From NCBI GenBank assembly GCA_963788655.1, contig CAWBHS010000017.1, positions 1 through 64,000 on the forward strand: 64,000 bases of DNA, given 5' to 3'. Numbering within the stretch: the stretch's first letter is position 1; each line of letters begins with the position of its first letter. Of the stretch, positions 35,532-60,051 are shown piece by piece. The notes beneath the pieces are model-generated. The model was not told the DNA's origin, did no database searches, and saw only the letters and a program-made list of their open reading frames with translations. This DNA is from an uncultured Verrucomicrobiae bacterium (lineage in GTDB: Bacteria; Verrucomicrobiota; Verrucomicrobiia; Limisphaerales; JAFGQR01). The position numbers and the translations under genes were made by a program.

Positions 35532-35602
35532 CGTAGCAGCCGACGTGAGGAGGCTCATGCTTTCCACGACGGAAATCAGAGCCTCCTCACGTCGGCTGCT
35601 AC
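35532..35602. repeat. REP element (GTAGCAGCCGACGTGAGGAGGC family)
   Basis: Perfect arms GTAGCAGCCGACGTGAGGAGGCTC / GAGCCTCCTCACGTCGGCTGCTAC. Relatives at 23261, 23362-23457, 37039 and 51898. Confidence 0.88.
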
Positions 35603-37038: not shown

Positions 37039-37100
37039 GTAGCCGCCGACGTGAGGAGGCGACGCGCTGGAAGTGGCCCCGGTTCCGCCTCCTGAGTTCG
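37039..37100. repeat. REP element (degenerate right arm)
   Basis: GTAGCCGCCGACGTGAGGAGGCG ... CCGCCTCCT. Confidence 0.65.
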
Positions 37101-37446: not shown

Positions 37447-38263
37447 ACCGGGTAGGCGTAGGCGGTCACCCGCCCACGCCCCCCTAAGAACCGGACTTGA
37501 AAGTTTCCCTTCATCACGGCTCAAGCCTCTCCAAGGCCACCCCGGATGCGGGGGACCCGCGTAACCAGGAGGCCGGTGACACCCAAAGGCGTCATGGACC
37601 TTCCCAATCCCACTTGGCAATACCGGTCGGCGGCCATATCGCGCCCGGCTCCTTTGGGCCGCAGCACCGAGAGGCACCAAGCGACGGGCGTCGCTCGTCC
37701 TATGCTTCTCTCGCTTGAAGGGGTTCCGCTGATTTTCTTGCCAGGAGACACCAGATCGACGTGGGCATATCCGGTCCATTACCGACCGGCCTTGGCTTGT
37801 TCGATCCTCTTCATGCTGCCTCCCCTGGGCCTGCCTTGCGGTCGGCTTGCCTGGATACTCTCCAGGCGGGAACTGGCAGCTTTTCCATGTTCCGCATTCT
37901 CCACAGGATGGGTTAGGTCCACTCTGTACACCGGCGGTGCGCCATTCGCGTCGGGCTACGTTAGACAGCCCGAACTTGACCGCTGGCCTTCTTTTGGCCG
38001 GAGCCTTAAAACAGCCTCGTATGGCTCGTTCCTCTGACGATGCTTGCGAGTGTTCACGTGGGTTGACCCTACCATCCAATTCTAGCGCCGCACCCGGATT
38101 GAGGCTCCCAGGCTGGCTACATTGTCGGGAAGGCTTCACACCCTGGACAGTAGCCTTACGGCCGCCCGCCCAACGCATGCTTCCCTGGAATACCTGCCGC
38201 GAAAGGCAGGACTGAGTCAGGTTGCCCATGCTCAGCAGTGATGAATGCGACTTCATGTCACAA
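37447..38263 (-). mobile_element. ORF-less group II intron (817 nt) inserted in attC core site
   Basis: 5' end TTGTGACATG; domain V GAGCCGTGATGAAGGGAAACTTTCAAGTCCGGTTC (37522-37488) with AGC triad and GAAA loop; domain VI with bulged A at -7 ending CCTACCCGGT; EBS1 hairpin at 37973-37951; no RT ORF. Confidence 0.9.
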
Positions 38264-38384
38264 CCAACGCCGAGGTGAGCGAGGGCTGCCGGCAGCGCCC
38301 GCTCGACTGTGAAGAAAACGGTGGAAGAACCCGGTGCTCCCGCTGCCAGACGGGGCAGCCCTTCGCTCTACCGACTGGTTGGGC
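38264..38384 (-). mobile_element. attC site 1 (R' box interrupted by the intron)
   Basis: Top strand GCCCAAC...GTTGG. Bottom-strand hairpin GGT/ACC, GAGCGA/TCGCTC, GGGCTGCC/GGCAGCCC with two extrahelical T. Confidence 0.85.
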
Positions 38385-38394
38385 ATTCTCGGTT

Positions 38395-38986
38395 TCATTT
38401 TGGTGCTGCGCTGGCTTCCCTCGCGAGGCGTTTGCGAATCGCCGCCAAGCTCTTCTCGTTCTCCTCGTCGGGCCACAACTCGTAAGCGCGAAGGAACTGC
38501 CTCTCCGCATTTGTAACGTCGCCCAATCCCAGATAGATGCTCCCGAGGTAGGCGTGTCCGTAATAGTAGTTGGGCTGCTTGGCGACCAACTGTTGCGCGA
38601 GGGACAGCGCAGTCTGGTAATCCAGACGGTCCATCGCGGCGCTTACCTCGCGCCAGGGACGCGCCGGCGACTGTTGCGGCGTTGTGCGCGACTCATCGTA
38701 GCGGTCTCGGTCGTGGCGAAGTATGGCCATGTAAACAACTGCCCCAGTCAAAAAAACTGCGAGGAACCATGTCTGAAGCTGTCCGATCTTCCTGAACTTC
38801 TGTAGCTCAGTCAATATGCCCGCATTGATGTTGTCGCTCCTGGCAGGTGGTGGGGACCGGAAATGCGTCCTGCTCGGGCTATCGATAGGGGGCACCCTCA
38901 GCAGCAGGCTCGAAACACGTTCCACATTCCGAGCAATGCAAGGACTCCTCTGGGTTCTCACGTCCGCAGTAGTCACACCGTTTCAT
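38395..38986 (-). CDS. Cassette gene: zinc-ribbon + TM + TPR protein; frameshift in C-run near 38890
   Basis: ATG 38986 gives MKRCDYCGRENPEESLHCSECGT; the next frame gives a TM helix and TPR (YYGHAYLGSIYLGLGD..AERQFLRAYELWP). Stop lies just before attC1. Confidence 0.75.
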
Positions 38987-39006
38987 ATTTGCCCCTGAAT
39001 GATGTT

Positions 39007-39102
39007 GCCCAACGCCGAGATCACCCATGAGCGGCATCCCAATACCGCTCAAATTCTAAACCGACGTGCTTGCCGCTCATTGGGTGAATCGATTGGTTCG
39101 GA
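39007..39102 (-). mobile_element. attC site 2
   Basis: R'' TCCGAAC, R' GTTGGGC (complement of attC1 R''); stem TCACCCA/TGGGTGA and TGAGCGGCA/TGCCGCTCA with extrahelical A and T. Confidence 0.88.
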
Positions 39103-39103
39103 T

Positions 39104-39409
39104 TCATTTCGTCTCTTTCAGGTCAGGCTGATACTGGGTGTCGATCAAATCATAATCCCTGCGGATGCGAGACAATGGATCCTGGTCTGGGAGGATCCGT
39201 CTCGAATTGGGCAACATCTTCGCTGGGTCAGCAGGGGGCAGCGTGAGATGGAATCTCTGCGTCTGAACCTGAGTGAAGGTGAAGACTGGTCCAATTGGGG
39301 CACGCCTACTCGAAGTGGTCTGAGAAGGTACAAGCAGGCAAAAGCAAAGCACGAATCCCCCACAAAATCCGGCTAGTCCCCAAAGTATATGTTTTGATCT
39401 GGCATTCAT
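39104..39409 (-). CDS. Cassette gene: small membrane-anchored hypothetical protein
   Basis: 101 aa with one N-terminal TM helix; fills the space between attC3 and attC2, with its stop abutting R''. Confidence 0.7.
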   Translation of the reverse strand: MNARSKHILWGLAGFCGGFVLCFCLLVPSQTTSSRRAPIGPVFTFTQVQTQRFHLTLPPADPAKMLPNSRRILPDQDPLSRIRRDYDLIDTQYQPDLKETK

Positions 39410-39436
39410 AAAATGCGGGCGACGGATGCTTTTGTT

Positions 39437-39563
39437 TCCGAACAACCAAGCTCACCGATCCGCGCCGGGCGGGACGGTCGAGCGTGAAAGAAACGATGGA
39501 AAAACCAACTGAGCAACGAGCGGAGGATCGGGGCGCGGATTCGTGTGCAGCGCTTGGTTCGGC
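39437..39563 (-). mobile_element. attC site 3
   Basis: R'' GCCGAAC, R' GTTCGGA (complement of attC2 R''); stem GCT/AGC, CACCGA/TCG(T)GTG, TCCGCGCC/GGCGCGGA. Confidence 0.85.
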
Positions 39564-39834
39564 GTTTGATGAGATAGCTGTGGACGCTGCTCTAAGACGG
39601 ATAAGGGCAACCCAAAACGTCGAAGACCAGACCGGTCGCTACAAATACCCAGACTGCGCAGATGTGCTGGCCGCAGAAGTCGAACGCCTGCGATCTGTCT
39701 CCGAAAAGCAGCAGTGGCGGATAACCAGCCTACAACAAGACATGCGCACGATAATGGACGTTACTCGATGGGAACACCAAGCGCACCAGATCGCCAAGCG
39801 CGCTCTGACGCCGAACAACCAAGCTGAGCGATGA
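39496..39834 (+). CDS. Reverse-oriented cassette gene: phage-like hypothetical protein
   Basis: Starts inside attC3 (ATG 39496 or GTG 39484); LAAEVERLR coiled-coil motif; stops inside attC4, overlapping the next ATG. Confidence 0.65.
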   Translation: MEKPTEQRAEDRGADSCAALGSAFDEIAVDAALRRIRATQNVEDQTGRYKYPDCADVLAAEVERLRSVSEKQQWRITSLQQDMRTIMDVTRWEHQAHQIAKRALTPNNQAER

Positions 39835-39907
39835 GTGCCCCATCCCAAACTCCCGAACTGCCAATCAGCGTGGCGGGGCACTCATTCGCTCCAGCGCCTG
39901 GTTCGGC
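39810..39907 (-). mobile_element. attC site 4
   Basis: R'' GCCGAAC, R' GTTCGGC; stem GCTG/CAGC, AGCGA/TCGCT, TGAGTGCCCC/GGGGCACTCA with extrahelical C and T. Confidence 0.9.
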
Positions 39908-40493
39908 GTTCAGGTGTGTGATGGCCGACCCGCCGTGGCAACTGACGATGCGCGGCAAACGCAAGCGCGCCAAAGAGCCAAACCTGCCGGAATCGCTACC
40001 GTATACGACGATGACTCTGGACGAAATCTGCGCTCTGCCAGTCGGTGAACTCTGTGCTGATGACTGCCACTTGTGGCTGTGGACTACCAACCAACACCTG
40101 AGAGACGGCTTTCGGGTAATGGAGGCGTGGGGCTTCCGGTATCTCGCGCCCGTCCACTGGATAAAACCGAGCGGCGTCGGCAACTGGTTCGTCCACCGCA
40201 CGCAGACAATACTGATGGGATACAAGACCCGATGCCGCTTCGAGCGCGCCCGCTACCGGCCAAACATCGTGACGACTGGCGACCCGAAGCGGCACAGCGA
40301 GAAGCCGGAGGAAACATACGCGCTCATCGAATCTGTGAGCAGCGAGCCACGGCTGGAAATGTTCGCACGCCGGAAGCGTCCCGGCTGGCAGTCCTGGGGC
40401 AACGAAGTCACCAGCGACGTGATACTGACGCCGAACGTGGAGGTCACCGACCGGCAGAAAACCAGAAAGGAAACGGATGCCAAACAAACATGA
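39831..40493 (+). CDS. Reverse-oriented cassette gene: MT-A70 family N6-adenine methyltransferase
   Basis: MADPPW catalytic motif, YTTMTLDEICALPV, CHLWLWTTN, HSEKPE, LEMFARRKRPGWQSWGNE. Confidence 0.92.
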   Translation: MSAPSQTPELPISVAGHSFAPAPGSAFRCVMADPPWQLTMRGKRKRAKEPNLPESLPYTTMTLDEICALPVGELCADDCHLWLWTTNQHLRDGFRVMEAWGFRYLAPVHWIKPSGVGNWFVHRTQTILMGYKTRCRFERARYRPNIVTTGDPKRHSEKPEETYALIESVSSEPRLEMFARRKRPGWQSWGNEVTSDVILTPNVEVTDRQKTRKETDAKQT

Positions 40494-40538
40494 AACTGAC
40501 ACGCAGGCAGCCGGTTCGCGTGAACCGATTGGTTCGGT
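40430..40538 (-). mobile_element. attC site 5
   Basis: R'' ACCGAAC, R' GTTCGGC; stem GG/CC, TCACCGA/TCG(C)GTGA, CCGGC/GCCGG. Confidence 0.82.
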
Positions 40539-40845
40539 GATCCCGGCCCCGTGGGGTGGCATGGAATGGAAACATGCCTTGATGGCTCGAAACCTAATGT
40601 CATCCCGAAAATGGATATGCCGGACCGAGTGGGGGCGTGAATTTGTTATTGCGTTCAAAGAACCGGGTCCAATTGCGCTACTCTGCATTGAGGATCGGCT
40701 GTGGCCAGTTAAGCCGTATTCACCGAACGTCCCGGATCACCGACCGCCGCCGGAAACGGGCGCTGGCAGCGAATCCAGCGTCCAAAGTATGCGGTGCGTC
40801 CTAACCGAAGTGCGGGGCGGCGGTTCGAGTGAATCCGATTGTTAG
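40477..40845 (+). CDS. Reverse-oriented cassette gene: hypothetical protein
   Basis: RBS AGAAAGGAAAC and ATG inside the attC5 loop; stop TAG within GTTAGCC of attC6. Confidence 0.55.
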   Translation: MPNKHETDTQAAGSREPIGSVIPAPWGGMEWKHALMARNLMSSRKWICRTEWGREFVIAFKEPGPIALLCIEDRLWPVKPYSPNVPDHRPPPETGAGSESSVQSMRCVLTEVRGGGSSESDC

Positions 40846-40847
40846 CC
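40722..40847 (-). mobile_element. attC site 6
   Basis: R'' GGCTAAC, R' GTTCGGT (complement of attC5 R''); stem GGA/TCC, TCACCGA/TCG(A)GTGA, CCGCCGCC/GGCGGCGG-like. Confidence 0.85.
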
Positions 40848-40848
40848 G

Positions 40849-41313
40849 TCATCGTTCTAAAAGTGGTAAATCCTTCCGCGCATCTCTAACGTAATCCTCC
40901 AACGTGGTCACTCGCTTGATGTAGTCAGGATCACTAAGCATACCCTTCAAAGATGCCAGCATCCGCAAGGACCAATCACATCGAACCAACTCCTCTCGGT
41001 GTGACTCTGAATACTTGATAATTACGCGAGCAAGAACAGACATCCTCTCAAGGTCCTGTTTGTCTGCTGTCTCGTTGAGCTTCCGCAATTCCGTCAGGCT
41101 CGACTCAAGACTCATGATGCCGTGGGCGCGCAATTCGTCTGGGGTGTCCTTGTAACCGGGCTTGTCCATGACCTTATCCGCCGCTTTCATAGTAGTCACA
41201 GCGTCCACCGCAGAAGCGTAATAGCTCTGATAAAGTGCTCGACGACACTGGGAATGTCTCTGGCACCCTTGGCAAAGCAGCAACAGCGTAAGAAATGTGA
41301 CTGATAATCTCAT
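40849..41313 (-). CDS. First cassette gene: predicted lipoprotein, all-helical hypothetical
   Basis: MRLSVTFLTLLLLCQG-C lipobox; lower GC; stop abuts attC6 R''. Confidence 0.75.
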   Translation of the reverse strand: MRLSVTFLTLLLLCQGCQRHSQCRRALYQSYYASAVDAVTTMKAADKVMDKPGYKDTPDELRAHGIMSLESSLTELRKLNETADKQDLERMSVLARVIIKYSESHREELVRCDWSLRMLASLKGMLSDPDYIKRVTTLEDYVRDARKDLPLLER

Positions 41314-41322
41314 GGCGGCCAC

Positions 41323-58983: not shown

Positions 58984-60051
58984 TCACTTTTCTCCGCCGG
59001 GTTTGCGACTTTGTTCGACGAGCAGCTTTTGTAACTCACCGAATGACTTTGCCTGCGAAGCGCTCTCGACTGATTTCTCGGCAATCTCCTGGACCTTCTG
59101 GTAAGCCGTCTCAAGCTGGCGGGACAGCTTGGTGTTGTTATCCGACAAGTCTTTCACGGTCTTTTCCAGGGATTCGATGCGCGCCGTCATGACATTCATC
59201 TGGCCTTCGGCTTCTTTCTTCAGCAAGTCTTCGCGGTTCTTGGCTTCGAGTTTGAGCCGGTCGCTAACGTCCTTGACGGCCTTGTCCACGTTGGTTTGGA
59301 GTTCTTTCGGAAATGCCTCGGCCTTGGCGCGCAACTGATTGAACTCGGTTTCCTTTTCGGCTACACGATGTTCCCGCTCGGTCAGTTCTTTTTCAGCGGT
59401 TTCCTTTTTCAGCCGGAGTTCCTTTTCCAACGTGGCCTTCTGGTCGTTGAGTTTGTCCAACGCGGTTTGTTGGTCACGTTTGAAGGCATATTCGAACTGT
59501 TCTTTTTCGCGGTCGCGGGCTTTCTTCTCGGCGGTGTCGCGCTCGCGGACCTCGGCCTCGTGGGCCTTCCGCTCCTTCTCCCATTCATCGTGCGCTTCGT
59601 TGATTTCGCGGATCAACGTCTCGCGCTGTTGAGCCATGTCGGTCTCGAACTCCTGGCGTTTCTGATGTTGCGCTTCGATGAGCGCCGCCAGACTGGACGC
59701 ATTCTTCTCGATGCCGTACAGCTCCTGCAATTCGCTTTGCTTGCTCTCGACGGCCTTTTGGAGGCTCTTGAACTTGTCAGCTTCGACCGCCAGCTTTTCC
59801 GAAACCTCGGCCAGCATCCGCGTGATCTCGGACTTGAGCGTGCCAATCTCGCGGTCAATGCCCTCCGGCGCCACCGAGGCGGCGACCTGCGTGGCTTCAA
59901 CGGCGGCTTTTTCGGCCAGCTTCTTTTGCGGATTCAATTCGGCGGCGCGCTTCTCCTCGAGTTGTTGCACCAGGGTGCCATAGGCCTCGAGGATTTCCTG
60001 CTTGGTGTTCTTGTCGGAAATTTTCTTGGGATGGGTTGGTTTGTCGGGCAT
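58984..60051 (-). CDS. Conserved coiled-coil hypothetical protein
   Basis: KNTKQEILEAY, LQELYGIE, E/K-rich heptads over 355 aa. Confidence 0.8.
   Translation of the reverse strand: MPDKPTHPKKISDKNTKQEILEAYGTLVQQLEEKRAAELNPQKKLAEKAAVEATQVAASVAPEGIDREIGTLKSEITRMLAEVSEKLAVEADKFKSLQKAVESKQSELQELYGIEKNASSLAALIEAQHQKRQEFETDMAQQRETLIREINEAHDEWEKERKAHEAEVRERDTAEKKARDREKEQFEYAFKRDQQTALDKLNDQKATLEKELRLKKETAEKELTEREHRVAEKETEFNQLRAKAEAFPKELQTNVDKAVKDVSDRLKLEAKNREDLLKKEAEGQMNVMTARIESLEKTVKDLSDNNTKLSRQLETAYQKVQEIAEKSVESASQAKSFGELQKLLVEQSRKPGGEK

Follow-up and report, generated by a model that had tools for sequence, protein, structure and literature searches.

We analysed a 64,000-nucleotide window of the genome of an uncultured Verrucomicrobiae bacterium (GenBank assembly GCA_963788655.1, contig CAWBHS010000017.1, positions 1 to 64,000 of the forward strand), which is contig C17 of a 9-Mb genome in 115 contigs. 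Across positions 38259–40851 the window carries six integron attC sites, all on the + strand, and among them lie three co-oriented open reading frames (ORF1, ORF2 and ORF3). An initial annotation, made from the letters alone, had described these as reverse-oriented cassettes forming a coupled operon, and the ORF coordinates, the ATGA and 17-nt overlaps between neighbours, and the peptides encoded where each frame crosses the R'' box of its own attC (LGSA, PGSA and IGSV) and the R' box of the next (TPN, TPN and SPN) are all present as claimed. The features are collected in Table 1.

A chromosomal cassette array without an integrase

The hairpins between and around ORF1–ORF3 are imperfect palindromes with CCGAAC...GGTTCGG ends. 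We aligned five of the window's sites with two look-alikes from other contigs and built a covariance model from the alignment; it is on this model of the window's own sites, and not on the curated IntegronFinder/HattCI model, that the attC identification rests. In the consensus fold, a 6-bp R box is followed by an unpaired spacer and by an L-box stem, whose 3' arm has three unpaired bases, around a variable loop; 7 of 21 pairs show compensatory changes. The window's sites have the R boxes of attC sites (CCGAAC or CCCAAC ... GTTCGG or GTTAGC), which follow the pattern RYYYAAC...GTTRRRY genome-wide (GCCTAAC, GCCGAAC or GCCCAAC ... GTTAGGC, GTTCGGC or GTTGGGC), as well as the L-box stem and the extrahelical bases confined to one arm. 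The model matches at least 97 sites in the genome, clustered as arrays, which is a lower bound, with 150 of 4203 first-look candidates scored. The hairpins in the window are integron attC sites. That they should belong to another repeat family, such as REP elements or terminators, with the ORFs forming an ordinary small operon, is extremely improbable: although the window itself is without an integrase, the canonical R boxes, the extrahelical bases and the compensatory changes all point to attC, as do the abutment of arrays on intI genes in the expected polarity and a 292-bp unit duplicated exactly between crossover points.

A search with the integron-integrase family placed all matches in the genome on other contigs and none in the window, those above the curated cut-off being on C59, C49 and C69, and Pfam scans of the ORFs flanking the array revealed no recombinase. 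With six attC sites (two being the minimum for the class), no integrase in the window and intI genes elsewhere in the genome, the array is therefore a cluster of attC sites lacking an integron integrase (CALIN), that is, a part of an integron cassette array on the chromosome. As for the integrases themselves, the matches on C59 (66134–68710) and C49 (288364–289293) hold an in-frame stop, C59 carries further split integrase pieces, and the sole uninterrupted copy is the one on C69, at the contig end.

In the canonical divergent integron layout, the coding strand of intI is the attC bottom strand. At both intI-proximal arrays of this genome, which lie upstream of intI, the strand matched by the model is the intI strand (on C49 both intI and all attC matches at 290278–299249 have the minus orientation; on C59 both intI and all matches at 60048–65483 have the plus orientation). 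The extrahelical bases sit on the 3' arm of the model strand, the arrangement of an attC bottom strand, and among 60 cassettes bounded by two model matches the longest ORF lies opposite the model strand in 45 and on it in 12. For these reasons the + strand of the window is the attC bottom strand and ORF1–ORF3 are encoded against the array, so that the reverse orientation initially proposed for the three cassettes is borne out.

Table 1. Positions of genes, attC sites, cassettes and junctions in the window
Feature	Positions	Strand	Remarks
attC f	38259..38388	+ (bottom strand)	R' AACCAAC 38262-38268; model match E 1.7e-12
attC a	39004..39104	+ (bottom strand)	R' GCCCAAC 39010-39016
attC b	39434..39567	+ (bottom strand)	loop with ORF1 ATG 39496; AAC-frame stop TGA 39510-12, 14 nt after ATG
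attC c	39807..39911	+ (bottom strand)	ORF2 ATG in 5' arm of 11-bp perfect stem
attC d	40427..40542	+ (bottom strand)	loop with Shine-Dalgarno-like AGAAAGGAAAC 40464-74 and ATG 40477
attC e	40719..40851	+ (bottom strand)	commonest attC type of the genome
ORF1	39496..39834 (39484 alternative left end)	+	112 aa; core SAFDEI...ALTPN; tail NQAER from attC c
ORF2	39831..40493	+	predicted MT-A70 N6-adenine DNA methyltransferase, 220 aa; core residues 27-192
ORF3	40477..40845	+	122 aa from ATG 40477; last 38 residues are attC e read through to TAG in its R''
ATGA junction	39831..39834	+	ORF1 stop overlaps ORF2 start; AAC+17/+18 of attC c
17-nt overlap	40477..40493	+	ORF2 end and ORF3 start
Cassette b	39443..39815	+	373 bp; limits inferred from R' boxes, rule checked on cassette d
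Cassette c	39816..40435	+	620 bp; R' boxes 39810-16 and 40430-36
Cassette d	40436..40727	+	292 bp; 100% identical copy on C59
TPR protein	38395..38976	-	normal-orientation cassette ORF; from ORF listing and Pfam
Cassette ORF, 113 aa	39104..39445	-	normal orientation; likelier start ATG 39409; 63% identical paralogue on C4
Cassette ORF, 157 aa	40849..41322	-	normal orientation; ends on TAA of attC e top-strand R''

ORF1–ORF3 and their starts

ORF2 is predicted to encode a DNA adenine methyltransferase of the MT-A70 type, an orphan enzyme whose role is probably protection from restriction. The protein matches Pfam PF05063 (4.4e-31, 108.5 bits against a cut-off of 23.9, over the core given in Table 1), has the catalytic DPPW motif as ADPPW at residues 32–36, and is classed as 'DNA methyltransferase' by PHROG and as a type II MTase by PADLOC. 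Its first 26 residues come from attC c and its last 19 from attC d, with the peptides ..APGSAF at R'' and ..LTPN at R'. We found 1035 homologues at E <= 1e-3 and aligned 43 of them. The conserved core opens at F27 (FRCV-ADPPW), one codon past R'', which encodes G24-S25-A26, and the shortest homologues have M and 2–4 residues ahead of FR(C/T)I (MKFRTILADPPW, MNGFRCIVADPPW); before F27 and after about residue 200 the homologues are mutually unrelated, xPN being followed by unrelated tails. Since the core begins one codon past R'' and there is no in-frame ATG, GTG or TTG between R'' and F27, ORF2 must, judging from this alignment, start inside attC c, at ATG 39831 or GTG 39870. For this gene, the claim that the start and any ribosome-binding site lie inside its own attC is thus upheld.

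ORF1 and ORF3 are predicted small proteins without an assigned function. In the case of ORF1, which reads ..ALGSAF at R'' and ..LTPN at R', Pfam, PHROG and PADLOC gave no match and an Atlas search gave unnamed clusters only; scans of metagenome_contigs and viral_contigs found no relatives, and cultured phages gave no match. It does have three metagenome relatives, with 79–89% identity over the aligned stretch, and these share [G/D]SAFDEI....HQIAKRALTPN, with limits exactly at R'' and R', which are the limits of the cassette. Their leaders differ (21–24 residues, all called from an ATG inside attC), and so do the tails after TPN (none, AEVSASAREESKP, or DRTELSARVT...).

ORF3, with ..PIGSVI at R'' and ..YSPN at R', is the weakest of the three genes. 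Its ATG 40477 is preceded, at a distance of 2 nt, by a Shine-Dalgarno-like stretch with an AAGGA motif in the attC d loop (Table 1). A word-index search with ORF3 returned a sole match, P0121, a Lar-like restriction-alleviation protein from another metagenome; the two have in common only the leader encoded by attC d, MPNKHET.TQAAGSREPIGSV, beyond which P0121 passes into an unrelated domain. Several attC loops in the genome encode similar A-rich, ATG-led leaders (MEKPTEQRA, MPNKHETDTQ, MKKPQHETP, MKKQTQLK and MKNKIMN); the loops are at 39496–39540 and 40477–40520 in the window and at C100:92170, C47:910, C49:291290 and C59:2918.

Two observations weigh against starts within the attC loops. An exhaustive search aligned one 68-aa protein to residues 21–83 of ORF3, a weak match at 35% identity (E 7e-6); because this sole relative begins at the R'' position, the start of ORF3 may be not the loop ATG but GTG 40537, which closes R'' as the final three bases of GGTTCGGTG. 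ORF1 could likewise start at the in-frame GTG 39580. True starts downstream of the attC sites would have spoken against the initial annotation; this does not apply to ORF2, whereas for ORF3 the start may lie at the very end of R''.

A stronger form of this objection is that ORF2 is the only gene, ORF1 and ORF3 being chance frames or genes that start downstream of attC, so that no three-gene unit exists. The in-frame GTGs at 39580 and 40537 fit this reading, as do the lack of Pfam or PHROG matches for ORF1 and ORF3, the absence of ORF3 from the called proteins of the window, and a codon-usage score that is neutral or negative for both. Separately, and counting against the coupled reading of the locus, Pfam found nothing on five other cassette-spanning bottom-strand ORFs of the genome or on the C59 copy of ORF3 described below, and one such ORF resembles antisense noise. 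However, host-trained codon scores do not discriminate here, as they fail for a paralogue-supported minus-strand cassette ORF too, and we dropped both codon usage and GC3 as gene tests. Moreover, the conservation of ORF1 among its three relatives stops exactly at the cassette limits, the ORF3 body aligns end to end with the 68-aa protein, and, out of 60 cassettes, b and d alone have an ORF over at least 70% of the body on the bottom strand and none such on the top strand. On this evidence, we consider it quite improbable that ORF2 stands by itself.

Cassette limits and exchange of C-terminal tails

We delimited a bottom-strand cassette as beginning with the C that follows RYYYAA, comprising its attC and then its gene, and ending with the RYYYAA of the site after it. 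Cassette d has a copy on C59 that is 100% identical from CGCCGAAC to CACCGAACG and unrelated outside, the identity stopping at the R' boxes on both sides; this gives indirect support to recombination of the cassette at R' by an integron integrase. ORF1, ORF2 and ORF3 are all without a stop of their own and each ends in the next attC, as had been claimed. Cassette d, though identical, carries another ORF3 tail on C59 (..KPYSPN-AKRTDERHPENVRTVN, as against ..KPYSPN-VPDHRPPPETG... in the window), which shows directly that the C-terminal tail varies with the cassette next to it. In the cassette before d on C59, a bottom-strand open frame ends ..AYSPN and then acquires the tail that ORF2 has in the window, VEVTDRQKTRKETDAKQT. 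The swapping of C-terminal tails by cassette shuffling that the initial annotation foresaw is therefore seen in this copy and in the relatives of ORF1 and ORF2. The copy of cassette d lies inside the intI-proximal array, and about 270 bp upstream of it there is an IS110-family (DEDD) transposase gene (Pfam; L009 12448–13830, C59).

Methyltransferase cassettes in other genomes and in phages

Near relatives of the ORF2 methyltransferase, 52 of 53 attC model matches are on the strand of the gene (7 of 7 in 20 of the 42 loci from genome_contigs, 31 of 31 in 80 metagenome loci, and 14 of 15 in 49 of the 80 viral loci). The hosts in genome_contigs are Pseudomonadota, Acidobacteriota and Planctomycetota, at 49–68% identity, and so wide a spread is as expected of mobile cassettes. 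Among the viral loci, an IMG/VR record of 46.9 kb with direct terminal repeats, rated 100% complete, has six co-oriented attC sites around the methyltransferase gene; + strand ORFs with Pfam support in this record encode PAPS reductase, ASCH, MT-A70 and DUF4326 proteins, and several start inside attC matches. In a second phage record, which has terminase and HK97-type capsid genes, an attC lies directly upstream of the methyltransferase gene. Searches for terminase and capsid genes gave nothing in two of three phage records, other families not having been searched for, and cultured phages held only distant ORF2 relatives, at 41% identity or less. The idea that the cargo is phage-like is thus partly sustained: the methyltransferase cassette does occur in phage genomes, in the same orientation, but ORF1 and ORF3 are without phage relatives. 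These cassettes may have originated in phages.

Reading frames and stop/start overlaps at attC junctions

As in coupled polycistrons, co-oriented genes with an overlapping stop and start are found at both junctions of the window. To see how frames and overlaps behave in larger sets, we took 47 attC sites from the neighbourhood of methyltransferase relatives and asked, for each R', how the longest bottom-strand ORF that ends close to it behaves. In 19 cases the ORF reads through R' with AAC as a codon and in 3 it does so in another frame; 10 end on a TAA in R', 11 have a stop of their own earlier, and 4 sites have no such ORF. When the methyltransferase's own downstream junctions are left out, the read-through ORFs split 13 in the AAC frame against 3. 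On the other strand of the window, the minus-strand cassette ORF at 40849–41322, whose stop is the TAA in the top-strand R'' box of attC e (40849–40851), mirrors the 10 of 47 ORFs that end on the R' TAA.

Beyond R', 11 of 15 attC sites upstream of methyltransferase relatives have as their first AAC-frame stop a TGA that overlaps an in-frame ATG or GTG of the methyltransferase gene (ATGA or GTGA). The overlaps range in position from AAC+17 to AAC+125, with 6 to 42 intervening codons, and the spacing always shifts by whole codons. Counting overlaps of the form NTGA that open at least 60 codons at the 47 external sites, we obtained 15 in the AAC frame. The remaining two frames had 0 and 3, and a top-strand control had 8 when its three frames were summed. 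The 15 sites form 13 sequence clusters at 70% identity, and nine precede genes other than the methyltransferase.

Start codons, too, are unevenly spread over the strands. In this genome, ORFs of at least 60 codons with their first ATG inside attC are found at 17 of 91 sites for the bottom strand and 4 of 91 for the top strand; at external loci the figures are 26 and 4 of 47 sites. An AAC-frame stop falls within -3 to +20 nt of that ATG in 10 of the 17 cases from this genome (six times at +1, three times at +14 and once at -2; other frames 1 and 3) and in 15 of the 26 external cases (twelve times at +1; other frames 0 and 6). Of the window's own sites, attC c belongs to the +1 (ATGA) kind, and attC b and attC d, which have similar loop sequences, belong to the +14 kind. 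Taken together, the frame at R' and the overlap of stop and start are both seen far more often than in the controls, as would fit a role for attC sites as coupling junctions.

The R'' box behaves differently. In the set of ORFs with their first ATG inside attC, the G of R'' GTT falls at codon positions 1, 2 and 3 in 7, 7 and 2 of the 16 ORFs from this genome and in 10, 9 and 7 of the 26 from other loci, and the chance of three ORFs sharing their R'' frame is about 1 in 9. Within the methyltransferase family the R'' frame varies, GTT being mostly itself a codon and 7 loci having an ATG in R'' (GTTATGC); the strict hairpin finder used at these loci missed most sites, including attC d of the window, and we counted only where a site was found. 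GTTAG-type R'' boxes close the frame of the window with TAG. Of the frame conservation at R boxes on which the initial annotation built its case for translation-coupling modules, then, the R' part is confirmed, with AAC read as a codon in 19 of 22 read-through ORFs, and so is the enrichment of stop/start overlaps in larger sets, but the R'' frame is at chance level, being roughly uniform in 16 and 26 ORFs.

Besides the R'' frame, several results count against attC sites as coupling junctions. When all start codons are admitted, the NTGA test in this genome yields 18 cases on the bottom strand against 22 in the control, which is no excess, and most are GTGA from the conserved L-box motif; earlier, cruder frame counts were not significant. 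An ATGA is found at the first ATG in 70 of 95 methyltransferase loci, whether in a cassette or not, many of these being ordinary phage-type operons with short leaders. Second codons that start with A are common at bacterial N-termini, which inflates ATGA counts, and attC sites in homologous cassettes are not fully independent. A scan for σ70-type promoters found none upstream of ORF1, other promoter types being outside the scan, and one metatranscriptome run, in which 6% of the sampled words were present, gave only 8 short pieces over attC-like stretches, which is uninformative as to expression. Finally, the neighbourhood ORF1-ORF2-ORF3 was not found elsewhere, and neither ORF1 nor ORF3 occurs near the methyltransferase relatives; the trio is an assemblage of independent cassettes.

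These points could be explained if the cassettes were real and the junction pattern an unselected by-product of compaction and descent: trimmed genes would lose their stop and run to the next chance stop, ATGA would come from A-starting second codons and from stem motifs, and the genes would be silent cargo here. CGATGAG is indeed a recurrent stem motif of the attC sites of the genome, and the ATGA overlaps of non-cassette operons, the equality with the control over all start codons, the chance level of the R'' frame and the lack of promoter or expression support are all in keeping with such an origin. Under this explanation, however, the frame of the overlapping TGA would be expected to match the R' AAC frame in one third of cases, and we see a match in 18 of 23 ATG cases (in this genome, the ATG-only NTGA cases number 6 in the AAC frame, and 0 and 2 in the others). 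Nor does it lead one to expect that the spacing between AAC and ATGA shifts by whole codons among diverged attC sites, that read-through favours the AAC frame as strongly as it does, or that the bottom strand has about four to six times as many starts inside attC as the top strand. We therefore judge compaction and descent alone to be an unlikely explanation, although one that deserves to be taken seriously.

A model for coupled translation

If the bottom strand is transcribed, the arrangement would allow the three genes to be translated as a coupled polycistron. In this model, the attC in front of each bottom-strand gene would supply its translation start region, and a gene without a stop would read R' as ..Pro-Asn and terminate in the attC of its neighbour, where a ribosome arriving in the frame that has AAC as a codon would stop on the ATG of the next gene or 14 nt after it. 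RNA folding places the AUGs of ORF1 and ORF3 in terminal loops, together with the purine-rich stretches upstream of them. The fold of attC c has a predicted energy of -54 kcal/mol, with the AUG of ORF2 paired (P unpaired 0.01).

We envisage four steps. The + strand would first be transcribed from a promoter outside the three cassettes. ORF1 would then initiate in the open loop of attC b. Ribosomes translating ORF1 would pass R' and open the 5' arm of attC c on their way to UGA 39832–34, where they would terminate and then reinitiate at AUG 39831, thereby melting the stem that buries the ORF2 start. Lastly, ribosomes leaving ORF2 would stop 14 nt after the loop AUG of ORF3. We lean towards this termination-reinitiation scheme as the likelier account of the locus; the transcription of the + strand, the coupling itself and the standing of the three genes as an operon are read from the arrangement of the sequence and are put forward here as candidates.

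A broader proposal, which we hold more tentatively and rate a little short of probable, is that the junctions represent a shared standard. Genes that conform to it would have no stop, would read R' as xx-Asn, and would be followed by an attC whose ATG has an overlapping or nearby stop in the same register, with the result that shuffling would rebuild coupled polycistrons. This would amount to a second, Pc-independent mode of cassette expression, one that probably evolved in phage CALINs, where the bottom strand would be transcribed, and that would have been exchanged with bacterial integrons.

Introns and other repeats beside the array

An ORF-less group II intron of about 815 nt lies at about 37447–38261 on the minus strand of the window (Rfam RF02012, RF00029). 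It is on the attC top strand, directly after the R' of attC f (GTTGGTT followed by GTGAC...). The genome contains at least seven copies at 97–99% identity (C17, C49, C80, C93, C59 (twice) and C9), each behind an attC-type arm, with unrelated 3' flanks. On C99, C44 and C46 there are longer relatives, about 2.1–2.2 kb in all, that agree with the intron over its first ~550 nt and its last ~92 nt; the reverse transcriptase responsible for moving the short copies may be encoded in them. Group IIC-attC introns are, in the accessible part of one account, bottom-strand insertions in attC that face against the transcription of the cassettes (PMC3001079). We considered the intron beside attC f as a classical member of this class and rejected the assignment, as it lies on the top strand after R'. 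Its orientation was also considered as a contradiction of the array polarity and dropped, since introns in the same orientation behind attC sites have precedent in the available text of another study (PMC7923331).

Palindromic repeats of the form GTAGC(A/C)GCCGACGTGAGGAGGC... are found behind chromosomal genes at 35533–35602 and about 37040–37100. The first is a perfect 24-bp inverted repeat, and the family is distinct from the attC sites.

Significance and comparison with known systems

Integron cassettes are taught as promoterless genes followed by an attC and expressed from the promoter Pc. The array described here departs from this scheme, as do related arrays of phages and metagenomes: real genes lie behind attC sites on the other strand, start inside them and are joined in a common register. 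Should this register be functional, attC sites would carry translation signals besides recombination signals, cassette order would set expression by coupling and not only by distance from Pc, and the cassette pools of phages and bacteria would be linked. The arrangement is also an example from nature of recombination sites that form part of coding sequence. It affects the annotation of cassette ORFs, many of whose N- and C-termini are attC-encoded and depend on context.

Cassette arrays and CALINs, the latter being attC clusters without an integrase, are reportedly found in bacterial genomes, according to the IntegronFinder paper (PMC4889954). The present array resembles bacterial CALINs in its attC hairpins with R and L boxes and extrahelical bases, its short promoterless cassettes, and the absence of an integrase from an array whose genome encodes intI elsewhere. 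It differs in having three adjacent bottom-strand genes behind attC, each with its start in its attC and its stop in that of the neighbour. Genes that run against an array are known from the chromosomal integrons of Vibrio, where reverse-oriented toxin-antitoxin cassettes are Pc-independent and have their own promoters within the cassette. In the window, by contrast, the gene core begins 8 nt after R'', which leaves no room for a promoter outside attC.

In phages, CALINs have been described, several with DNA methyltransferase genes (Qi et al. 2023, PMC9892861). As far as the accessible text of that study goes, the likeness lies in attC clusters with methyltransferase cargo, ORF2 having relatives beside co-oriented attC sites in IMG/VR phages. 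The same text treats its arrays as typical cassette arrays, with no account of bottom-strand coding, starts in attC or junction frames, and the array studied here is chromosomal.

Translational coupling is itself known from class 1 integrons, in which ORF-11 in attI1 and short ORFs within attC sites serve top-strand cassettes (the available portion of the review PMC8876359), and the rate of cassette translation is described as shaping the expression of an array (PMC11511950, in the part accessible). Judged from these portions, the two systems would have in common termination and reinitiation at overlapping or close stop and start codons, and translating ribosomes that relieve the barrier of attC stem-loops. 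In class 1 integrons, however, coupling acts on the top strand, under transcription from Pc, through short helper ORFs, whereas in the window it is bottom-strand cargo genes that start and stop in attC sites and share a register. A literature search, mostly without subscription journals, yielded no description of bottom-strand cassettes that start inside attC or of a shared junction frame.

The closest parallel for the junction between ORF1 and ORF2 is provided by overlapping gene pairs of the ATGA and TGATG type, which, in the accessible part of the report, are coupled by termination-reinitiation (Huber et al. 2019, PMC6728339). ORF1 and ORF2 share the ATGA overlap with these pairs, but here, as far as that text allows the comparison, it joins two independently mobile units and lies inside a recombination site.

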